This document shows positions 9,750 through 44,444 of a DNA stretch of 49,315 nucleotides, piece by piece. Position 1 is the first letter of the stretch. Every line of letters starts with the position of its first letter. The stretch spans positions 1-49,315 of the IMG/VR virus record IMGVR_UViG_3300022927_000033; one strand, given 5' to 3'. The DNA comes from a virus (Duplodnaviria > Caudoviricetes). Under the pieces are notes generated by a model that did not search any database, was not told the DNA's origin, and worked only from the letters and a program-made list of their open reading frames with translations. Position numbers and translations under genes: made by a program.

Positions 9750-9927
9750 GTGGTTGTTCCCGTTTGATTCAATGCAAGTAGGGGACAGCTTTTTCATTCC
9801 GTCTATACAGACAGGCCCGTTAATATTTTCTCTCGAACGTGGGGCTAAGAAGGCAGGCGTTCGAGTTAAAACACAAGTAGTCGTAGAAGATAAATTGATG
9901 GGCGTTAGAACGTGGCGTGTGGATTAA
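9727..9927 (+). CDS. Small phage protein, putative DNA-binding
   Basis: FPFDSMQVGDSFFIP...GVRTWRV is a pattern common in phage small proteins. Confidence 0.7.
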   Translation: MKLHKEIEWLFPFDSMQVGDSFFIPSIQTGPLIFSLERGAKKAGVRVKTQVVVEDKLMGVRTWRVD

Positions 9928-12900
9928 CTACCGTATTCTCTCTTAATAACATCAGCGGTACGCTTAGATAAAGTGATACCGTTGGTGCTTTCTTCAATAG
10001 ACCGTAGACGTTCTCTAAATGAACGAGTTAATGTATCACTTGTAATTGGATTAGACCTACCTAATGTGCTTTTATTAAAGTCAGCTATTTTACCGTCAAT
10101 TTCTCGAAGCATCTCCATATCACCATTATTTCTAGCTAAGAAATGAGATGTGAGCAATCCTGAACGGCGTGCATTAAATGACCTCTCTGCCGCTTTCATG
10201 GATTGATTGCGTGCATACTGTAATGATAAGTCTTCATTGGTAAAGCCGAATACTTGTAGGAAAGCATCGAGTCCATTAAGTTCTGTCAGCTCTGCGCCTT
10301 TTCTTGTAAGTGCTCCCTCTGTGCCATAACGAAAGGCTTTCATAGGATTACGTAGGAACGCAGGCATCATTTGTTCTAGACCGCGATACATGTTGCCGTT
10401 GCTCATATCACCTAGACCTCGGTTAACACTTAAGAAGTATGAGAATGATGGACCTAATGTTTGTTCTGCAGCGTATTGTAATACACCTACTTCAGATACA
10501 CGACGTGGGTCTTCACGCCATATTAAGTTAGCAAAGCCGGTTCTAGACGCAATGTCTAGGTTAAGTAGTTTATTAAGTGGACCACGATATCCTATATCAC
10601 CGAAGATTTCTCGAGTAGATTCTTCAAAGTCAAAGGGCTCATCATCATCTCCTAGTAAAGCATAGAGTGATTCTGCTACAACTTGTGTGGCACCATATAA
10701 AGGCACGCCTTGCAGCCCTGAAAATGTAAATGCAGCACCATAGATACCTAGTATTTGTTTACGAGCCATGTTACGTACTTCTTTAGTTTCACCTTTATAA
10801 GCATCATACATACCTTTAATTAGTAGATGCATCATAGCGTGGCCGTAGCGTTTAAAGGTAAACATCACTTTACCAAAACCTGTTTGGAAATATCTAGGGC
10901 CTACTTCGGGTAGCGCAGTACCATGAGAGCGTCGAGTTAGGTCTCGCGCATAAGCTTCCGCATTTACAAAACTGTCCCCTTTTTCTTTAGCAGCTAGGTA
11001 GCCTGCTAAGTAAGTTACTTCACGGTTCATACGTTCTGTATTCTGGAACATCCAACCCATCAACGCGTCAAACTTAGCTTTCATACCTATAAAGTCTTTA
11101 GCGTTTGTTTTACGCATTTCAGTTAATTCATAACCTACGCCACGTCTAAATACAGTATTGCGTATACCTTGTTCATAGAGTTGTTTAATATCGGCTGGTA
11201 GAGCCTCATTAAGTCTGCCGTTCTTCATACCAAAAGAATGGTCGGGTAAGAAGCCTCGGTTACTATCTTTACCCCCGCCAAAGTAATACCTAAATGCTTC
11301 GCCTATAGCTTTGTTTGCAGAAGTAAATCCGTATTTAGCAACAAGAGCAGGATAAACAACAATAGCTAACTGCGATGCGTTAACAACGGCTGAAGACACG
11401 TTACCAGCAATGGTTGTCATGTAGCTTAAATAAGCGAAGCGTGATGATATAGGTCCTGCTACAGGGTTATGGAAAAAGCTTCGAGCCGCAGGCCCTGAGA
11501 TTTCTTCTACTGCATAAGCAAGCGATTCATCTAGCCTGGTCTTCTTCTCAACAGTCATTGTAGTGTCAGCTAAAGTAGCTTCTCTAGCAACTTTGCGTTC
11601 CGCTTTAATGTCATTGATGGTTTCGTCAATTTGTGGAATATAATCTAAGTTAGCAATCTGTGTAGCCATCCTAGCACCTAAATCAATGAAGCCTCCTACA
11701 AGGTCTTGAATCTCACCTTTAGTACCTATTCTTTTACGAGTCTGTTGTTTAATAGATTGAGCAGGCAATAAATCTAAGAATATCTGTCTAACTTGTTCAA
11801 CTGTTTTAGGGTCAACTTTTTGCTCGTTGGTTGTAGCATCTTTTTTACTTAACACTGCAAGTACTTTATCCATTACTTGAACAGCACCTACAGTCATATC
11901 ACCGCGCTGAGATACGGGGTCTACACCGCCAGTCAAGAACTCTAAAGTATCATTAGCTTCTAACTCTCGTAGGGCGCGTAGATATTCATTTTTAGTTTCA
12001 AAACGTTTAACTGTTTTTAATTGGTTGAAAGCACGTTCAGCTTCAGCTAATGCTTTTTCGTCTGTCAGATTTTCAACTTCCGCTTCAAAGTTTTGTAAGT
12101 CCGCTTTTGAAATATACTCAAGACGATAATCACCTTGTCGTCTAAATGGGTGATAAAATTTGAGGCGGTTATTTTGAAACTCTTGGATAACAATGTTGGA
12201 CTGTGCTTGTGCGGCAGGGTCAGTTCCTACGTTTTTAACGAATGCTTTAATAAGGTTATCACCATACTGTTCATATTTTGTAGTGTACGCAATAGCTAAA
12301 CCTTGTAGTTCTGCAGGCAAGCGCCTAAATTGCTCAACAAGAGGCTCGGCTTGATTTACATCGCTTAGATTTCGAGGGTCAATGTTTTGTCTTGATAGTT
12401 CATAGACGACTGTTTCCCAATCTTGTAATTGCTTATCAGTGTATTTAACTTTAGTAGTCTGGTCATTCATAGCAACACTACCGTCTTTATTTAGAGCAAG
12501 CTTCACTTCTTTTGCATTATATTTCAAAAGCTTACGTTCTTTGCCTTGAATGATGTCCATACCTAAATTACCAAGTACATCGACTTCAGCACGTGTGGTT
12601 TCAACACTAGCCGCACGCTGTTCAAGCACATCAATTAGTTTTTGAATACTAGGTAAGTACTTACCATATAAGTCTGCCATTGCCTGTAGACCTAGTACAC
12701 CCATCCATGTTTCTCTTACTTTTGTGGGTAACTGTAAGATTTTATCCCACACGCCTTGAATATAATCTTTAGTAGGCAGAGGCATTTTTTTAATGGTGTC
12801 ATCAGCAAAGCCAAAGTTCTTAGAGTATTGTGTAGGTTGATATCCGCCCGGAGGATTATTTTTAGAGAACTGAAGGTCAGTATTTTTAGTCATTGTTTCA

Positions 12901-15833
12901 AGTAAAAGTCTATTGTTTCTACTTGTTGGAACCATTGTACTGCTGTGTAGAATAACTACTTCGTTATCCCCCTGTCCTTCCATTAAAATACTATCTATGA
13001 CAGGGCGCACTAATTTATTATCATTACTTTTAATAACTACAGGTATTTCTTCAATGCCTGCATTGATAGCCATAACAGCACGATGACGCCCTTCATGAGA
13101 TCTAACGGTTACTGTCCTAGGCACAAAGTCTACAACTTTTGCATAGCCTGTCATAAAACGTTTTTCTACGTTATCTTCGGGTGTAGGAGGGCGCGTATCA
13201 AAATCAGTTACTAAAAGTTCAGATACTTCCATATATTTTGGATCAAACTTACCTTCAGACTCTAATGGTTCGACTGATCCTACACCTTGAGCTACTTGTT
13301 TTTTCAAAGCTTTTATGTGATCCAAACTAGCAGTTAATTTTAAAAAGTCTTCTGGGGCCATGTAAGTTAGCCATCCTGAACTTAAATTGTAATCTGCGCT
13401 GTTTCCATAATCAGCAAGAATCTTATCTAAAGTTTCGTCTTTAATGCCAAGCTTGGTGTTTATTTCTCGCCTGCTTTGTTTGACATCAGCTGATACCTGT
13501 TCTCTGCCTGTGGTCTCTTTGAGAGAAGCACGTAGAGAGTTTAGAATCATGTCTTGAATATCTATATCACTAAATCTATTGACGTCGTAAAGACCGAGTC
13601 TACGCAAGAAGTTTTTGACCGCACCAATGAGTCGACGCATAATTGTATTGTTAGGAGCCTGCTCACCTAGTTTAGCTACGACTTCTTGTAGGAAGGGTTT
13701 GCTTCCAGGTGTAAGTTCAGGATACAACGCCTCTACTTCATCATAGATTTCTTTGACTTGTTTGTTAGTATTCTTAAGTGACTTGGCTCTGTTAAGAAGG
13801 GCCTTGTAGTCTTTGCCTACCATCTTCTCTAGACCATAGTGCTCTCCTACTTCATGGAGTAAGACACGTCTAGCTTGACCTTCAGGAACACGATTAGCTA
13901 CAATGTATGAGGTCTGTGTACTAGGGTCAAAAGCACCATTAGCAGTCTCTGACATCTTGACAGTATCGGGTAGTTCTTCAACGCTGTTTACAATTTGTAA
14001 GCGTCCTCGCTCTTGCATTCTACCTACGTTAGGTCCAAATTCTTGTGTAAGTTCATTACTCACCGATTCACTTGTATTGCCCGTATCGACGGGGGCTACA
14101 CGAGCCTCTTGTGTGCCTAGAGACGCACCGGTAGTTTCAATGCCTTCAGCGTCTTTGTATTTTTCTGACATCTTGTCAGCAATTTTATTTTTAGCATGAG
14201 TAGCCTCGACCTGATCAACAACCTCTTGGTTAAGCATGTTTGCTTCTTTAGCCATGCTCACAATGTCTTTGGATGCTGTATTTAAGTCTTTGAAGGGTAT
14301 GTCAGACATAGCCGCCCATGTCTCTTCTGCAGTTTCTTCAAGAGCAACAGGGGCTTGTTCTTTGGGTTCTTTTTTAGCTAGTGCTTCAAGTTGTTGTGGG
14401 AGTTCTTTATCTTGTTTAATTAATCCCTTAATTTTTTTAATGGAGTCTTTACCTGCTTCAGTGCTAGGATCAAGTAAGTCTTGTTCCGCCGCTATGTCAA
14501 CAACATCTTTAGTAGTCCCAGATAAAGTATCGTAGGGTGTGTCGGTCTTAAGGTTATCCCATAATTGTTGAGCAGTTAGTGGAGCAGGGCTAACTCCCTC
14601 TCCTCCTGTAGGTTCTGGTACATCAACAGTATCAGGTCCCAATCGTTCTCCGACAGGTTCTCTAACTCCTTCGGTAGTGTCGTCGATGGGCTCGACAGGT
14701 ACTGGAGTGCTAACTCTAGGAGCCTCGACTCCGACAGCCTCTTGATCGCTTTTGGGTTTGGTAACATCAAGTTCTCCTTGTGGTTGAGTTTCTAGTTCTT
14801 CTACTATATCATCAGTAGCAGGTGGAGGTGTAGTTGTTTCTTCTTGAGGAGGCTCTGCAGGTTTTTCAACACTAGGTCGAGTAAATGGTGCAGCAGCACC
14901 ACCAAGGAAGCCGCCTGCAATAGCACCTCGAACAGATGATTCCATGATACGATCCCAATCTTCACTCTGGAAGATTTGTGGATTATTGCCAACAAAGTTT
15001 TCTGCACTAATACTAATTGCTTCTTGCGCACCTTCTGTCAAACCTTCTGCGCCTACAGCTTTGAGTCCTTCTTTAAATACAACGTTTGCAAGACCAGGAC
15101 GCATACCTGATTGTTTTACAACGGCTTTACCAATCGCTGCTTTTTGAGTAGGTGTGATTTTTTTTAATACTGCCGCAGGTAAAATAGCATCAAGTGAAGC
15201 GGCAGCCGCACCAAAGATAAGTGCCGCCCCTGTAGCTAGTTCGCCGGTTTCTTGGTAAACATTTTGAAATACTTCTGGAGCATTAAGAGAGTATGAGCCT
15301 AAATAAACACCAATACCTTGACCTACGGCTTGGCGATTAGCGAGTGCTGACGCCGCTATTTTTCCAGCGCCTACCTTTGCAAGTTGTCCCCCTACGCCAC
15401 CGGGCACAAGTGTTGTTGCAATGTTTGGAATTTGTTCAGCAACGGTCTCTGTCGCAAATTTAAGGGCTTCAATAGGACCGCTGACTTCTTTAAATGATTC
15501 AAACTGCGGTCTATATTTTTCTCGAATGATTTGTTCTGAGGTTTCAGCTTCTTTGAGTTGCTCTTCAGCATATTCATCAAAGCCTAAAGAACTTGCAATC
15601 ATAGCGGGGATAACGTCCCCAAAAGTAGAAGCTACTCGTTTTTTACCACGACTAAAGGCTTTGCTTGCAGTTTCGCCAAACCCATAATCAGGTCTAGTTT
15701 CTTCAGGAACAGGACGTGCAGATTGTGCCGCAATTTGTTCTACGGCTTGAGCAAGTTCTTCAGCAGTAGCCCCTTCTGGTCCAACGAGTCTTACCGTCTG
15801 ACCATCGGGTAAAGGTACGTTATAAATAGGCAT
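9924..15833 (-). CDS. Large polyvalent internal virion / DNA-ejection protein, 1969 aa
   Basis: Last and largest late gene. Contains an HExxH-like metallopeptidase motif (LLHEVGEHYG), a ParB-like SHEGRHRA motif and a long helical C-terminus. Confidence 0.7.
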   Translation of the reverse strand: MPIYNVPLPDGQTVRLVGPEGATAEELAQAVEQIAAQSARPVPEETRPDYGFGETASKAFSRGKKRVASTFGDVIPAMIASSLGFDEYAEEQLKEAETSEQIIREKYRPQFESFKEVSGPIEALKFATETVAEQIPNIATTLVPGGVGGQLAKVGAGKIAASALANRQAVGQGIGVYLGSYSLNAPEVFQNVYQETGELATGAALIFGAAAASLDAILPAAVLKKITPTQKAAIGKAVVKQSGMRPGLANVVFKEGLKAVGAEGLTEGAQEAISISAENFVGNNPQIFQSEDWDRIMESSVRGAIAGGFLGGAAAPFTRPSVEKPAEPPQEETTTPPPATDDIVEELETQPQGELDVTKPKSDQEAVGVEAPRVSTPVPVEPIDDTTEGVREPVGERLGPDTVDVPEPTGGEGVSPAPLTAQQLWDNLKTDTPYDTLSGTTKDVVDIAAEQDLLDPSTEAGKDSIKKIKGLIKQDKELPQQLEALAKKEPKEQAPVALEETAEETWAAMSDIPFKDLNTASKDIVSMAKEANMLNQEVVDQVEATHAKNKIADKMSEKYKDAEGIETTGASLGTQEARVAPVDTGNTSESVSNELTQEFGPNVGRMQERGRLQIVNSVEELPDTVKMSETANGAFDPSTQTSYIVANRVPEGQARRVLLHEVGEHYGLEKMVGKDYKALLNRAKSLKNTNKQVKEIYDEVEALYPELTPGSKPFLQEVVAKLGEQAPNNTIMRRLIGAVKNFLRRLGLYDVNRFSDIDIQDMILNSLRASLKETTGREQVSADVKQSRREINTKLGIKDETLDKILADYGNSADYNLSSGWLTYMAPEDFLKLTASLDHIKALKKQVAQGVGSVEPLESEGKFDPKYMEVSELLVTDFDTRPPTPEDNVEKRFMTGYAKVVDFVPRTVTVRSHEGRHRAVMAINAGIEEIPVVIKSNDNKLVRPVIDSILMEGQGDNEVVILHSSTMVPTSRNNRLLLETMTKNTDLQFSKNNPPGGYQPTQYSKNFGFADDTIKKMPLPTKDYIQGVWDKILQLPTKVRETWMGVLGLQAMADLYGKYLPSIQKLIDVLEQRAASVETTRAEVDVLGNLGMDIIQGKERKLLKYNAKEVKLALNKDGSVAMNDQTTKVKYTDKQLQDWETVVYELSRQNIDPRNLSDVNQAEPLVEQFRRLPAELQGLAIAYTTKYEQYGDNLIKAFVKNVGTDPAAQAQSNIVIQEFQNNRLKFYHPFRRQGDYRLEYISKADLQNFEAEVENLTDEKALAEAERAFNQLKTVKRFETKNEYLRALRELEANDTLEFLTGGVDPVSQRGDMTVGAVQVMDKVLAVLSKKDATTNEQKVDPKTVEQVRQIFLDLLPAQSIKQQTRKRIGTKGEIQDLVGGFIDLGARMATQIANLDYIPQIDETINDIKAERKVAREATLADTTMTVEKKTRLDESLAYAVEEISGPAARSFFHNPVAGPISSRFAYLSYMTTIAGNVSSAVVNASQLAIVVYPALVAKYGFTSANKAIGEAFRYYFGGGKDSNRGFLPDHSFGMKNGRLNEALPADIKQLYEQGIRNTVFRRGVGYELTEMRKTNAKDFIGMKAKFDALMGWMFQNTERMNREVTYLAGYLAAKEKGDSFVNAEAYARDLTRRSHGTALPEVGPRYFQTGFGKVMFTFKRYGHAMMHLLIKGMYDAYKGETKEVRNMARKQILGIYGAAFTFSGLQGVPLYGATQVVAESLYALLGDDDEPFDFEESTREIFGDIGYRGPLNKLLNLDIASRTGFANLIWREDPRRVSEVGVLQYAAEQTLGPSFSYFLSVNRGLGDMSNGNMYRGLEQMMPAFLRNPMKAFRYGTEGALTRKGAELTELNGLDAFLQVFGFTNEDLSLQYARNQSMKAAERSFNARRSGLLTSHFLARNNGDMEMLREIDGKIADFNKSTLGRSNPITSDTLTRSFRERLRSIEESTNGITLSKRTADVIKREYGS

Positions 15834-38231: not shown

Positions 38232-38380
38232 TACATTTCCTTTTCAATGTTTCTAATTACAGTGCATTCTTCTGTTATTACATGTGTATGTACTGTTGAC
38301 TCAACTGAGTCCATATAATCCCCGCCAACAAATGCAGTGGCTAAAGCAAGACAACTAATTACTATTTCTTTGAAAGCCAT
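38231..38380 (-). CDS. Small protein with hydrophobic N-terminus, 49 aa (not in ORF track)
   Basis: MAFKEIVISCLALATAFVGG...; fills the gap exactly with TAATG coupling at both ends. Confidence 0.6.
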   Translation of the reverse strand: MAFKEIVISCLALATAFVGGDYMDSVESTVHTHVITEECTVIRNIEKEM

Positions 38381-38670
38381 TATGCTTTCTTCCTTGTTGT
38401 CTTACGTTTTAATGGTGCTACTCTTCTTGGTTTACCTGCTGGCTGTCCAAGACTTTTCTTCTGCGCTACACGTGACTTCTTTTCAGCGGATGTCATCTCT
38501 CCTGATGTTTTAGGAGTTTTGCTAGACACTCTTTTACTAGGTCTGCAATAAGGAGTACCACGAGACTCCCCTTTCTTTCTGCCACATGCTTTACCGGTTC
38601 TAACATCTTTCCAATCCTCTTTGAACCAGCGTTTTAGTGCGGCACCTTTAGCTGTCTTTCTGACCGCCAT
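38380..38670 (-). CDS. Basic conserved phage protein
   Basis: LKRWFKEDWKDV...CGR...PYCRPSKRVSSKTPKT. Confidence 0.75.
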   Translation of the reverse strand: MAVRKTAKGAALKRWFKEDWKDVRTGKACGRKKGESRGTPYCRPSKRVSSKTPKTSGEMTSAEKKSRVAQKKSLGQPAGKPRRVAPLKRKTTRKKA

Positions 38671-38843
38671 TATTTTTTACCTTTATTCTTCCTGCACTTC
38701 GCTATTGCACCTGATGCATATGCACTAGGAAACACTTTATATGATGATTTTACTTTGTGGTAGCAAGCATCTTTCACACTACCGCCTTTTTTAAAAGCAA
38801 TAGGCTTCTTCATAGCCTTGCCCATACCTCTACATTTCATCAT
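38670..38843 (-). CDS. Small basic protein, 57 aa (not in ORF track)
   Basis: MMKCRGMGKAMKKPIAFKKGGSVKDACYHKVKSSYKVFPSAYASGAIAKCRKNKGKK; coupled to both neighbours. Confidence 0.75.
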   Translation of the reverse strand: MMKCRGMGKAMKKPIAFKKGGSVKDACYHKVKSSYKVFPSAYASGAIAKCRKNKGKK

Positions 38844-39139
38844 ATCATGCGACCTTTTGTTTTACCTTTTTTACAAATACCGTCGCGTTTACATTTTTTA
38901 ACCATACCGCCTTTTTTGTAGTTACCGGTTAGCATATCTATCGTGTTTTCATATTCTTCTTTTCGTTTTTTTCGTGAGTCTCTTGTTGTTTTTTTACTTT
39001 CTTTTGGTGGAGTTCTCATTTCTTCGAGCTCTTTTACTCTTTTCTTACCGGCGCGTTTACCCCCAACAATCTTTTTAGGGTCTTTATCCATTATTTTTTT
39101 TAGACGTGTCATTTGTCTAAGAATTGCTCCTGCCGCCAT
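38840..39139 (-). CDS. Basic protein with YKKGG motif
   Basis: C-terminus YKKGGMVKK..RDGICKKGKTKGRMI; AGGAG RBS. Confidence 0.75.
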   Translation of the reverse strand: MAAGAILRQMTRLKKIMDKDPKKIVGGKRAGKKRVKELEEMRTPPKESKKTTRDSRKKRKEEYENTIDMLTGNYKKGGMVKKCKRDGICKKGKTKGRMI

Positions 39140-39141
39140 AA

Positions 39142-39279
39142 TTATTTTCTCCTTTTAATCTTTTTAGTTTTACTAAACTCTTTACCTACTTTAGTAGGCA
39201 CCCCAACTTTTTTAGCAAACTTAGGATTGTTAGCCACAGCTTGCATAAACTTTAATTGCTTTTTACTTTTTGCTGGCAT
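39142..39279 (-). CDS. Small basic protein
   Basis: Likely start MPAKSKKQLKFMQAVANNPKFAKKVGVP at 39279, coupled to the upstream stop. Confidence 0.7.
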   Translation of the reverse strand: MPAKSKKQLKFMQAVANNPKFAKKVGVPTKVGKEFSKTKKIKRRK

Positions 39280-39497
39280 TATTTCATCCAATGGGCTACT
39301 ATATAAGAGATAAACGCGCCAATACCGGCAGCTATCCAAATAATAACTTTCCATCCGCCTCTTATTTCATCCATAGCTTTATCTATCTTATCAATTTTTT
39401 GTTTGACATCTTTCATATCTTTTATTAAATCGTCGATATCTTTTTGCATATGTCCAATAGCTATAGAGTGCTCGCCTAGTTCTCTTTCTGTACTCAT
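39279..39497 (-). CDS. Coiled-coil protein with C-terminal transmembrane helix (holin/XhlA-like)
   Basis: Heptad region followed by GGWKVIIWIAAGIGAFISYIV. Confidence 0.6.
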   Translation of the reverse strand: MSTERELGEHSIAIGHMQKDIDDLIKDMKDVKQKIDKIDKAMDEIRGGWKVIIWIAAGIGAFISYIVAHWMK

Positions 39498-39806
39498 TTA
39501 ACATTTCCACCTTCTACGCGCTTGGCGTAATCTTGAGTTAGGGTCTTTAGCTGCTTTTGGAAAGTCTTTCATTTGCCCTGCTGATCTTGCACAAAATGAC
39601 TTGCGTCGCTTTGCGTCTTTAGAACCAGGTTTAACTTTTCCAGTAACAGCTGTCTTTAATTTAGAGCCTGGGTTAGCTTTACGGTATGCTTTAACACCTT
39701 TCTTAGTCATACCAGCACCCTGCTTGGTCGGGCGAAAGTTACCCGACTTCACAGAAGTTTTGATTCCCATGCCTTTTTTCTTAGTTGTTTTCTTTTTCTC
39801 TGCCAT
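39498..39806 (-). CDS. Basic conserved phage protein
   Basis: GAGMTKKGVKAYRKANPGSKL...RRKSFCARS...RRRWKC; likely start at 39806 after GGAG. Confidence 0.75.
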   Translation of the reverse strand: MAEKKKTTKKKGMGIKTSVKSGNFRPTKQGAGMTKKGVKAYRKANPGSKLKTAVTGKVKPGSKDAKRRKSFCARSAGQMKDFPKAAKDPNSRLRQARRRWKC

Positions 39807-39925
39807 CAGACACAATCTCCGAGTGCTTCGAACCTTCTTCTATTTTCTGAAGTTGTTTTATTCTCGCTCGGTATTTTTTCTGCGAGGTTAGTATCTTCAT
39901 TTTTTGGTTCAGGTTCTTTATCCAT
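39806..39925 (-). CDS. Small hypothetical protein, 39 aa (not in ORF track)
   Basis: MDKEPEPKNED...FEALGDCV fills the gap with TGATG coupling; weak RBS. Confidence 0.4.
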   Translation of the reverse strand: MDKEPEPKNEDTNLAEKIPSENKTTSENRRRFEALGDCV

Positions 39926-40420: not shown

Positions 40421-40428
40421 TTGAATTT

Positions 40429-40503
40429 TCTCCATACAAAGTTAAGCTTATCCGTCGTGTATGCGTCTGCTGGGGCAGTCTGATAAGCTGGATGTTCCCA
40501 GAT
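40429..40503 (-). ncRNA. Pseudoknotted structured RNA resembling the Mu-gpT-DE motif
   Basis: Minus-strand pairings AGCUUAUC/GAUAAGCU, CUGC-CCCA-GCAG, CUGGG/CCCAG and CAUACA/UGUAUG. Lies downstream of a Mu gpT-like capsid gene. The family name is from recollection of context, not a covariance-model search. Confidence 0.65.
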
Positions 40504-40509
40504 AGTTAA

Positions 40510-40538
40510 ATCATACTCTATTTATTGTTTAGTTTCAA
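40510..40538 (-). promoter_or_regulatory. Sigma70-like promoter driving the structured RNA and downstream late genes
   Basis: TTGAAA-N17-TATGAT; the predicted start site falls at the 5' edge of the RNA structure. Confidence 0.7.
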
Positions 40539-40539
40539 C

Positions 40540-40562
40540 AAAAAAGGGGCGCTAGGCCCCTT
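40540..40562 (-). terminator. Intrinsic terminator of pqqA
   Basis: Minus strand AAGGGGC-CTAGC-GCCCC followed by TTTTTT. Confidence 0.8.
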
Positions 40563-40580
40563 AATTTAATATGAAATTAA

Positions 40581-40655
40581 TTACTTGTTCATAACGTACA
40601 TAGTTACTTCGAAGCCAAATCTCATTTCAGAAGCTGCAGGTGTTGTCCATGCCAT
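40581..40655 (-). CDS. pqqA: Pyrroloquinoline quinone precursor peptide PqqA, 24 aa (not in ORF track)
   Basis: MAWTTPAASEMRFGFEVTMYVMNK has the PqqA pattern W..P....R.GFEVT.Y with E-x3-Y. RBS TAAGGAG lies 7 nt upstream. Confidence 0.95.
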   Translation of the reverse strand: MAWTTPAASEMRFGFEVTMYVMNK

Positions 40656-40759
40656 GATAGTTCTCCTTATAAGTTAAATTTCAGCATAGCTGATAAAGGT
40701 ATATTACCACGTAAGGTAATCAATACCCTAAGTATAATCATGAGTTGTAGGTAAAAGTG

Positions 40760-40790
40760 AAAAAGCCCAGCGAGAGGGACTGGGCTTTTC
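40760..40790 (-). terminator. Intrinsic (bidirectional-looking) terminator after the major capsid gene
   Basis: AAAAGCCCAG-N9-CTGGGCTTTT. Confidence 0.85.
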
Positions 40791-40809
40791 CGAGGAGGGT
40801 ACTTACAGA

Positions 40810-41718
40810 TTAAGCACCTTGAGAGCCCCACATGCCGAGGGGATCTGACCAACCAAATGAATAACGCTCACGAGCTTTGTAACGTACGTTACCTGTGTCG
40901 AAGTCGCCGTCCATAGATGTAGTTAATGGAGTACGAGTAAAGTGCTTCATACCATTAGGTACATCAGTTGTTAAGAAGTAAGCATCTGTATCAGTTAAGA
41001 AATGATTAATGCTATAACCTTCTGGAATCGCACCATTAGATTTGATTGCGTTGAGGTCGTTATCAGCAGTAGCTACACGTAGCTCTGTTTCTAATAGACG
41101 AGTCGCAACGAATTGCAATGATGGTGGGATAATTAATTTACGTGGTTTAGCAGCAATTAATAAACCTCTTTCATCTGTCCATGCTGCGATTTGAATCACT
41201 GCATTTTCTAATGAAGTTTCGTTTAAGTCGGCAGCAACTGCCTGTGTATTGCTGTTTGTACCACCAGATACTAATGGATGGTCTGTAGCAAATAATGTTT
41301 TACCATCACCGCCTGTAGGACCACCAGAGAAGCCACTGTTAAGAACGTTAGCAGCTTTCACTTGTTTTGTGTTAGCCATTGAACGTGCTAATGCTTTAGT
41401 GTAACGAGCAGATAAAGTGTCGTAGAGGTTATCTTCAACAGCTTCTTCTGTTAGTGAGAAACCTAAAGCGATGGTTTCGTGGTTGTATCTAGCTGTCCAA
41501 GCTTCTTGTGCATTGTCATAAGCGATAGCAGAACCTTCGCCTTTAACAGGTGCATTACCGAAACCTGAAAGTTTTGTTTCTTCTTCAAAACTACGCTCTG
41601 AAGTTTCAGATTCGTAGATTTCTTTGTGCTCTTCACCATAACGCTGATATTCCATACCGAATAAAGCATTAAGGCCAGGAAGCAACTCTTTTAATAACTG
41701 AGCTCTTGAAATTGCCAT
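40810..41718 (-). CDS. Major capsid protein (Mu gpT-like family)
   Basis: MAISRAQLLKELLPGLNALFG...DGKTLFATDHP...KPRKLIIPP...RYKARERYSFGWSDP; strong RBS; terminator downstream; follows portal and scaffold. Confidence 0.85.
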   Translation of the reverse strand: MAISRAQLLKELLPGLNALFGMEYQRYGEEHKEIYESETSERSFEEETKLSGFGNAPVKGEGSAIAYDNAQEAWTARYNHETIALGFSLTEEAVEDNLYDTLSARYTKALARSMANTKQVKAANVLNSGFSGGPTGGDGKTLFATDHPLVSGGTNSNTQAVAADLNETSLENAVIQIAAWTDERGLLIAAKPRKLIIPPSLQFVATRLLETELRVATADNDLNAIKSNGAIPEGYSINHFLTDTDAYFLTTDVPNGMKHFTRTPLTTSMDGDFDTGNVRYKARERYSFGWSDPLGMWGSQGA

Positions 41719-43834: not shown

Positions 43835-44254
43835 TTATGCGCGTTCGTAGCCGCGGGGGTCATCAACCACTGCTTCTACGGCGTCGTCGTTCAAAATACG
43901 AAACTCTTTACCATGAATCTTGATACGAGTTCCAGAATATGCTCTAGTGATTACGAAGTCGCCTTCCTTACACCAAGGCCCTGTGGGAAATCTGTCTTCG
44001 TCTTTATAAGCCATATCTCCCATTTTTAAAACAAACAATACCACTGTTGAATGTTCTTCTAGTGATTTTGTTTTGTCTGATTTTAATATACCGCTCTGAT
44101 ACTTCTCCTCAACATTAGGCACAGCACATAAAAGTCTGTAACCCTTTACTTCAGGGAATTGAGTCGGTTTTTCTTCTTGTTTTGGCTCTTCTGGTATTAC
44201 TGCTTTACCATTCAAACCTACAACTTTATTGTCGGGTGTTATGATTTCACTCAT
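43835..44254 (-). CDS. groES: Phage-encoded co-chaperonin GroES (Cpn10)
   Basis: KYQSGIL...GPWCKEGDFVI..AYSGTRIKIHGKEFRILNDDAVEAVV; likely start MSEII at 44254. Confidence 0.85.
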   Translation of the reverse strand: MSEIITPDNKVVGLNGKAVIPEEPKQEEKPTQFPEVKGYRLLCAVPNVEEKYQSGILKSDKTKSLEEHSTVVLFVLKMGDMAYKDEDRFPTGPWCKEGDFVITRAYSGTRIKIHGKEFRILNDDAVEAVVDDPRGYERA

Positions 44255-44444
44255 CGTCATCCCCCATTTCTGTTTTTCTTGCAAGCGTAGCGACTAATGA
44301 TTGAGCGATATGAAATCCGCGAATAATGCCACATGCGTGCATATACTGTGCATGTTCCTCGGCTCTCCCCATGCATAAATCGTCTTTAATGCGTTGCTCT
44401 TCCTCGCCTAATTGTTGGGCTAGAAGGTTTAAGACCTCGTCCAT
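44247..44444 (-). CDS. Small hypothetical head-module protein
   Basis: AAGGAG RBS; Y...CGIIRG motif; between portal and groES. Confidence 0.7.
   Translation of the reverse strand: MDEVLNLLAQQLGEEEQRIKDDLCMGRAEEHAQYMHACGIIRGFHIAQSLVATLARKTEMGDDDE

Follow-up and report, generated by a model that had tools for sequence, protein, structure and literature searches.

The window analyzed here is the whole 49,315-nt stretch of IMG/VR record IMGVR_UViG_3300022927_000033, which carries portal, terminase, major capsid, DNA polymerase A, and helicase genes. Behind the major capsid protein gene (40810-41718, minus strand; phrog_371; PF10124), with 155 nt between the capsid stop and its start, lies a 24-aa pqqA gene on the same strand (40581-40655). 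The sequence-only reading had proposed such a hidden gene, and profile scores bear it out, the peptide lying well above the cut-offs of both PF08042 (Pfam profile, 40.3 bits versus 21.1; E 2.8e-10) and TIGR02107 (38 bits versus 20). The PQQ-forming pair, Glu16 (40610-40608) and Tyr20 (40598-40596), reads in the translation as the E-x3-Y motif near the C-terminus that had been pointed out. A TAAGGAG ribosome-binding site (40663-40669) stands with the ATG 7 nt further on, and the gene is framed by two intrinsic terminators on the minus strand, all three located where they had first been placed. The upstream one, which ends the head operon, is a 13-pair stem plus T-run (40759-40791; hairpin 40791-40759, -19.9 kcal/mol by RNAfold), and the downstream one is that of pqqA itself (40540-40562; hairpin 40562-40544 with the T-run to 40540, -11.7 kcal/mol). 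A small hairpin, TCAGC-TAT-GCTGA (40681-40693, minus strand), lies at the predicted 5' end of the transcript, where it presumably has a role, and recurs in related capsid-slot cassettes.

Neither pqqB-E nor integrase families found a match among the 65 window proteins scanned, in line with the earlier claim for pqqB-E; as the linear record is estimated to be 79% complete, the absence of pqqB-E holds for the window and not for the whole genome. A second contig (L215) matches the window at 100% identity over 4,381 nt, covering the ORF start and the upstream region. The window peptide differs from those of hosts in an extra Ala2, which none of 127 host copies examined have, and in a Ser9 for Thr that otherwise occurs only in this twin contig. 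The extra Ala after Met1 (40650-40652) is also present in phage copies L087, L099, and L207-L242, and may affect Met removal or stability.

Downstream of the insert, the phage backbone resumes with a sigma-70-type promoter (TTGAAA-17-TATGAT; 40510-40538, minus strand), whose position is occupied by a promoter-like stretch in relatives without pqqA as well, and with a conserved structured RNA leader (40421-40503, minus strand) of the gene at 40420-40229. Compensatory change was seen in 11 of the 14 predicted pairs of this leader across 12 sequences, and no Rfam family matched it at gathering score (chance-level matches only, at E up to 5). A pseudoknot could form between its 5' CTGGG and the loop CCCAG, and a leader-like loose motif follows the capsid gene in 42 of 64 relatives. 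Elsewhere on the minus strand of the window, a cluster of short Lys/Arg-rich ORFs (38380-39815; DUF5872, DUF6321), possibly encoding DNA-condensing or internal virion proteins, follows the head genes; a GroES-like co-chaperonin (43835-44284; PF00166 above cut-off) sits between the portal and scaffold-like genes; and a 1,969-aa protein (9924-15833) has a C-terminal DarB-like antirestriction match (phrog_10089).

An optional insert in a capsid-adjacent slot

To place the cassette among its relatives, we used the best 80 of at least 600 capsid relatives (82-90% identity), of which 64 had at least 800 nt downstream of the capsid gene and one more (L028) had a shorter flank. Seven of these 65 carry pqqA (6 of the 64, plus L028), and the nearest of them, L001, is empty, running from the capsid stop through one terminator directly to the next gene's promoter and leader, as expected if pqqA is an insert that close relatives miss. 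Because L001 shows the empty slot, the insert can be delimited to approximately 40758-40540; its GC content (33.5-40.5% versus about 39%) gives no clear mark of insertion. In the manner of a moron, the cassette thus has its own terminator and a site that is empty in close relatives. Carriers cluster on a quick capsid tree, on which 4 changes are needed and at least 3 are forced by strong branches. The number of pqqA gains read from this quick tree is provisional, as 15 of the 80 loci were excluded for flanks that were too short and 26 of 63 inner branches are open.

The slot also takes other genes, and we therefore regard it as an insertion hotspot. In L004 and L006 further cargo genes sit between capsid and pqqA, and in such slots the upstream motif and -10 element described below travel together with pqqA. 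The cargo between capsid terminator and motif (L004:3255-3596, L006:6015-6365, and L211-L242) consists of predicted membrane proteins. The layout had been described as insulated and capsid-linked. Insulation stood insofar as terminators flank the gene on both sides, though it is not phage-specific, as stand-alone host pqqA copies are built alike; the capsid link is real here, but this is one of many slots, accounting for 21 of the 89 viral pqqA loci whose flank reaches 1 kb, a set in which this slot is overrepresented. In the cultured phages examined, pqqA adjoins replication or recombination genes, tRNAs, or hypothetical genes. The capsid itself shares 66% identity with its counterpart in Pelagibacter phage HTVC023P, and its cultured relatives (55-69% identity, none above 69%) infect taxa other than Methylophilaceae.

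Distribution and host affinity of the peptide

A C-terminal PqqA pattern matches at least 120 viral and 122 genome loci, and its estimated totals are about 2,000 stretches for viruses and about 1,000 for genomes. The Methylophilaceae-like look first ascribed to the peptide is supported by the genome loci, 108 of 122 of which (counted by eye) bear titles that name Methylophilaceae, a genus within it, Methylophilales, or OM43, with 12 of the remainder bearing higher ranks only and 2 labelled Acidovorax caeni. The most frequent peptides are the same in phages and in hosts. Among GenBank phages, 12 records match (9 phages of Methylophilaceae or Methylophilales, 1 uncultured podovirus, and 2 weak Acinetobacter matches), and none of the 12 has pqqA annotated. 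Based on peptide and upstream motif, the host of the window phage is likely a Methylophilaceae bacterium. In that family pqqB scores above cut-off in 38 of 41 genomes, and pqqBCDE is complete in genome G001.

A palindromic motif common to phage and host pqqA

Motif discovery in the 150 nt upstream of pqqA, with 113 non-redundant host and 106 phage regions as input, returned one motif in the host regions (log-likelihood 735 versus 71 when shuffled) and one in the phage regions (516 versus 54). This motif, hereafter the PQQ box, is a 17-bp palindrome with the consensus CTMATGA-WWW-TCATKAG (symmetric matrix from 103 host sites). In the window it reads CTCATGATTATACTTAG on the minus strand (40728-40744), a predicted site for a host regulator centered near -42. 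Using the host-only matrix, this is the best site in the entire 49-kb window at 19.4 bits, with the runner-up at 8.7 bits, and one in 200 shuffled windows reached that score. The phage site is as strong as the top sites of hosts (17-23.5 bits), and it matches letter for letter the box before an operon-head pqqA of one host locus (L477). Relaxing the box to an IUPAC pattern cost it its specificity (6 and 8 sites versus 9 and 12 in controls), and that form was dropped.

At a threshold of at least 10 bits, the box was present in 99 of 114 host pqqA upstream regions, which form the training set, and in 54 of 106 phage regions (one being the window's twin), with the other 52 phage regions below it. 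Controls at that threshold gave 0 of 101 downstream regions and 0 of 106 shuffled regions, and the box is missing from all 58 capsid slots without pqqA. All 27 operon-head pqqA copies found in 30 family pqqB loci have the box, 25 of them outside the training set, although related genomes may overlap. Among cultured phages, 4 of the 5 genomes checked carry it before pqqA (P19250A, Melnitz-1, MEP301, and Venkman; MEP401 and three other Melnitz records were left out), and the fifth, MEP402, has no box within 170 nt of pqqA and a 13-bit site some 240 nt upstream.

Promoter geometry differs between phage and host

Reading from the box toward pqqA, a predicted -10 hexamer, TAATAT (40701-40706, minus strand), begins 21 nt past the box. 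Same-slot relatives have TATAAT at the same 21-nt gap, compared with which the window's hexamer is weaker. At spacers of 16-18 nt the window has no -35 element (1-2 of 6 matches), and a plain sigma-70 scan found no promoter for the cassette. This is common, as 36 of 58 host and 15 of 23 phage promoters have at most 2 of 6 matches to a -35. The box-to-hexamer gap itself sets the two groups apart: in hosts it is 44 nt for 58 of 101 regions, with a weak second site at +23 from the strong box, whereas in phages it is 21 nt for 32 of 66 and 44 nt for 6 (background 6.3%). Among the four cultured phages with the box, a -10-like hexamer at exactly 21 nt occurs in MEP301 only.

Positions -42 and -65 are those of class II and class I activators, respectively. 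Given the usual -12 to -7 placement of the hexamer, transcription of the window's pqqA is predicted to start near 40694, which would put the phage box at -42 and the host strong box at -65, so that the phage strong site would occupy the position of the host weak site. What appears to be new here is this putative host operator, common to phage and host pqqA and repositioned in the phage, to which binding is predicted. No description of the PQQ box came up in the literature searched, with subscription papers (e.g., Ge et al. 2015) and supplements falling outside that scope.

What the PQQ box precedes in host genomes

Where pqqB heads the operon, the box lies directly upstream of it in 3 of 3 genomes, G001 among them, at 19.3 bits each; where pqqA comes first, it lies directly before pqqB in 1 of 26 operons (9.3 bits, the others below 8), with one further locus left unparsed. 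Ca. Methylopumilus universalis has three stand-alone pqqA copies, all of them remote from pqqBCDE and preceded by a box, and the three best sites on its 1.27-Mb chromosome precede pqqA, pqqA, and pqqB. Further intergenic sites there precede the third pqqA, a TIGR03866-like beta-propeller gene, and a PqqU-like receptor gene, the last two products both being below their family cut-offs (487 versus 1200 bits for the receptor). No box precedes the two PF01011 dehydrogenase genes of M. universalis (3.1 and 1.2 bits). The one at 3.1 bits was taken as xoxF from its sequence, and because xoxF lacks the box, the PQQ box is not a general methanol-oxidation box.

Many mid-scoring sites on the M. universalis chromosome are intragenic. 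The genome scan gave 29 sites at 12 bits versus a permuted-matrix mean of 17 (maximum 37), and 4 sites at 18 bits versus a mean of 0.65 (maximum 5). As counts below approximately 14 bits are no better than those of permuted matrices, information can be drawn only from where the top sites fall. Mid-scoring intergenic boxes in G001 (12-16 bits; C1 positions 76590, 443341, 580838, 1058628, and 1202990) stand before genes for the TIGR03866-like beta-propeller, rhodopsin, the PqqU-like receptor, formate dehydrogenase, and cytochrome b561, and those under 14 bits may be chance. In Methylotenera mobilis 13, a 19.1-bit box precedes katG (L374:1501-1517) and a 20.3-bit box precedes a gene for a TonB receptor, for which PqqU is the top-scoring family (L376:1501-1517).

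Candidate regulators

We enumerated LysR, Fur, and LuxR-type families in two streamlined host genomes, G001 (3, 1, and 3 members, respectively) and G004 (2, 1, and 2). No site of at least 10 bits that would indicate autoregulation occurs in the loci of these genes in either genome, and neighbor clustering of 121 host loci linked no regulator consistently to pqq genes. The consensus Fur box is a 7-3-7 palindrome with an ATGA-WWW-TCAT core and thus resembles the PQQ box, such that the consensus scores 15.7 bits on the PQQ matrix. The two differ in that, for most host PQQ boxes, only 10-14 positions agree with the Fur 19-mer (12 for the box in the window). Fur as regulator is not supported, since the best Fur-type sites of the host, which lie before feoB and a TonB receptor gene, reach no more than -0.2 bits with that matrix. 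OxyR is likewise not supported, as the katG/oxyR gap has no box in loci L259 and L262, though one katG (L374) does have it. An OxyR-like gene adjoins pqqA in 10 host loci and is convergent in the three inspected. The LuxR-type response regulators common to G001 and G004 remain candidates, and in G004 the kinase partnered with one of them carries a LapD/MoxY-type domain.

Traces of selection and expression

Compared with ten other copies, the window's pqqA differs by 5-11 synonymous and 1-4 non-synonymous codons. The N-terminal codons, which the search pattern left unconstrained, show a modest signal, with divergences of 0.11, 0.13, and 0.27 at positions 1, 2, and 3. A near-identical strain in run X3 has three ORF changes, all at synonymous third positions, and two changes in the promoter spacer, with none in the box or the -10. 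All seven copies found without use of the pqqA pattern have an intact ORF, and all 19 variable pqqA codons are among the two commonest codons of the head genes.

Our survey of RNA libraries covered 8 of 22 runs (7 RNA and 1 unlabelled), in every case as assembled contigs; most libraries with matches are 2018 salt-marsh libraries and may represent one campaign. X1 and X3 have contigs over the whole cassette and X2 has them over part of it, which speaks to presence only, as such contigs give neither strand, start, nor level. Those in X1 and X3 cross the capsid terminator, which is compatible with read-through or with DNA carry-over too. In X4, X6, and X16, capsid contigs are present with no contig on the phage pqqA. 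Such gaps are uninformative on expression or termination, since X19, the unlabelled run intended as a DNA control, is of low depth and lacks cover at the same place. In X5 the phage pqqA is covered by a single contig, which is of high depth and has a foreign loose end at 40579, and we therefore assign it to another pqqA; over window positions 40579-40630 it shows another organism's pqqA at 90% likeness with a host-like flank.

Proposed explanation and its alternatives

We favor, at a probability of roughly 0.55, an explanation in which a host activator of PQQ genes binds the palindrome and switches the phage pqqA on, with host enzymes then making PQQ that sustains methanol oxidation. The pqqA gene inserted behind the capsid terminator is intact and brings its own ribosome-binding site and its own terminator. 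Under this proposal, the host's PQQ-gene activator would likely bind the 17-bp palindrome and turn the gene on; host PqqD, PqqE, PqqB, and PqqC would convert the extra peptide to PQQ; and this PQQ would likely sustain methanol oxidation during infection, the phage copy adding precursor at a cost of about 220 bp. As the box would tie the cassette to the host PQQ regulator, the phage peptide would be made when pqqBCDE is on. PqqE and PqqD link Glu and Tyr of PqqA and PQQ is then cut out, as the relevant text of PMC9851590 describes, so that one peptide is spent per PQQ. According to the part of PMC4109929 that treats them, Methylophilaceae carry 3-12 copies of pqqA but a single set of the remaining pqq genes, and together with the one-peptide stoichiometry this suggests that precursor supply limits PQQ output. 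Several links are read from arrangement: that the box binds a protein is what its conservation would suggest; that this protein is probably an activator follows from where the sites fall, the host strong site at about -65 with a weak one 23 bp nearer and the phage strong site at about -42; and the phage presumably gains from carrying pqqA.

Read-through of the strong capsid transcript, which the sequence-only reading had entertained, could instead be the main source of pqqA, leaving the box as a leftover of capture. The short distance from the capsid stop, the X1 and X3 contigs that join capsid to pqqA, and the repeated use of the slot (21 of 89 loci; 4 changes on the quick capsid tree) agree with this, but the strong 13-pair terminator stands between the genes, the box and its 21-nt gap are kept where cargo separates capsid from pqqA (L004, L006, L211-L242), and most viral copies lie elsewhere than behind this capsid, yet half have the box. 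Because that terminator intervenes and the cassette has its own box and a predicted -10 at a fixed gap, we consider a host-activated promoter of its own the likely route and read-through as the main one improbable. A comparably improbable alternative is that the extra PQQ serves something other than methanol-dehydrogenase flux, namely closing a PqqU-type surface receptor to competing phages or buffering oxidative stress. Receptor closing is reported for a coliphage in the relevant text of PMC12124388, the PqqU-like receptor of hosts lies behind the same box, and one host katG (L374) has it too. Set against this are the receptor's score below the PqqU cut-off, the katG loci L259 and L262 without a box, the hypothetical nature of such use by Methylophilaceae phages, and methanol oxidation being the known PQQ sink in these hosts.

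Somewhat less probable still is that replicated phage DNA titrates the host regulator, such that, if this were a repressor, host pqqBCDE would be de-repressed while the phage supplies peptide. A phage site as strong as those of hosts, overlapping the place that a -35 would occupy, is what such titration would call for, whereas a single site per genome, found only before pqqA, a fixed spacing to the -10 that a decoy would not need, and the general lack of a -35 in host and phage promoters, which suits an activator, all argue the other way. We give little credence to a neutral, unused passenger picked up from the host: the cassette is indeed missing from 58 of 65 capsid relatives, the nearest included, but the ORF is intact in 7 of 7 copies found independently of the pattern, changes are mostly synonymous, variable codons follow head-gene usage, the C-terminal pattern is estimated in some 2,000 viral stretches, and the promoter geometry differs consistently from that of hosts. 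Least credible is a decoy peptide that occupies PqqD/PqqE and lowers host PQQ, a notion to which the phage-specific Ala2 and Ser9 lend themselves and from which the unchanged E-x3-Y and core, and the identity of the commonest phage and host peptides, detract.

Returning to the favored host-activator explanation, a more specific version of it is tentative and, in our estimate, rather doubtful: that Methylophilaceae possess an undescribed regulator devoted to making and taking up PQQ, and that many unrelated phages captured pqqA with its operator and rebuilt the two-site switch into one -42 site, which would fire at lower regulator activity and out-draw the host genes. If so, phage infection would directly control how much PQQ is supplied, and how much methanol is oxidized, in coastal and fresh waters. 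Under the favored explanation as a whole, the operator would define a small Methylophilaceae PQQ regulon of pqqA copies, pqqBCDE, and the PqqU-like receptor, and its regulator could be pulled down with a 17-bp bait. For the cultured pairs of P19250A, Venkman, MEP301, and Melnitz, the prediction is that phage pqqA tracks host pqq genes and not late genes. Should this hold, it would be a clear instance of a phage adjusting a promoter captured from its host, and the box could help to assign phages without a cultured host to methylotrophs.

Comparison with known systems

That viral pqqA had already been published, as first noted, is correct: PqqA is reported in Lake Baikal viral population VP_266 in the relevant text of Coutinho et al. 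2020 (PMC7678222), and virus-encoded pqqA is listed for reservoir sediments in that of PMC13188868. The window's pqqA alone is thus a further case of a published, common, and mostly unannotated auxiliary gene. VP_266 resembles our phage in its phage-borne pqqA and in the proposed boost to PQQ and methanol oxidation in Methylophilaceae, and differs in being T4-like and also encoding methanol dehydrogenase, whereas the window phage is HTVC023P-type with pqqA alone behind the capsid gene. The relevant text of PMC7678222 and PMC13188868 contains nothing on the promoter or regulation of viral pqqA, the corresponding parts of PMC11118758 and PMC9564219 contain nothing further on phage pqqA, and the term pqqA appears nowhere in the main text of the Melnitz paper (PMC9004378). 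On the host side, regulation of PQQ synthesis is called unclear in the relevant text of a 2023 paper on PQQ production (PMC9851590).

The phage cassette closely resembles the stand-alone pqqA of hosts: its peptide is almost identical, it too stands by itself with a terminator behind it, and the palindrome in front is shared. It differs in its peptide (Ala2 and Ser9 in the window phage) and in its promoter, as hosts mostly have a strong box 44 nt before the -10 plus the weak site at +23, whereas this and many other phages have one strong box at 21 nt.

The closest regulatory parallel is found in cyanophages, in which Zeng and Chisholm reportedly described in 2012 that pstS and phoA are under host Pho boxes, with the regulator PhoR/PhoB and its signal said to be known and tested. 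In both systems a phage auxiliary gene carries the host's regulon site and would follow host physiology, and here as there that site is found in the phage promoter as well as before the host's cognate genes. The difference is that PhoR/PhoB is known there and the regulator is a predicted one here, and that the cyanophage products are an enzyme or binding protein, whereas PqqA is a cofactor precursor that is itself consumed.
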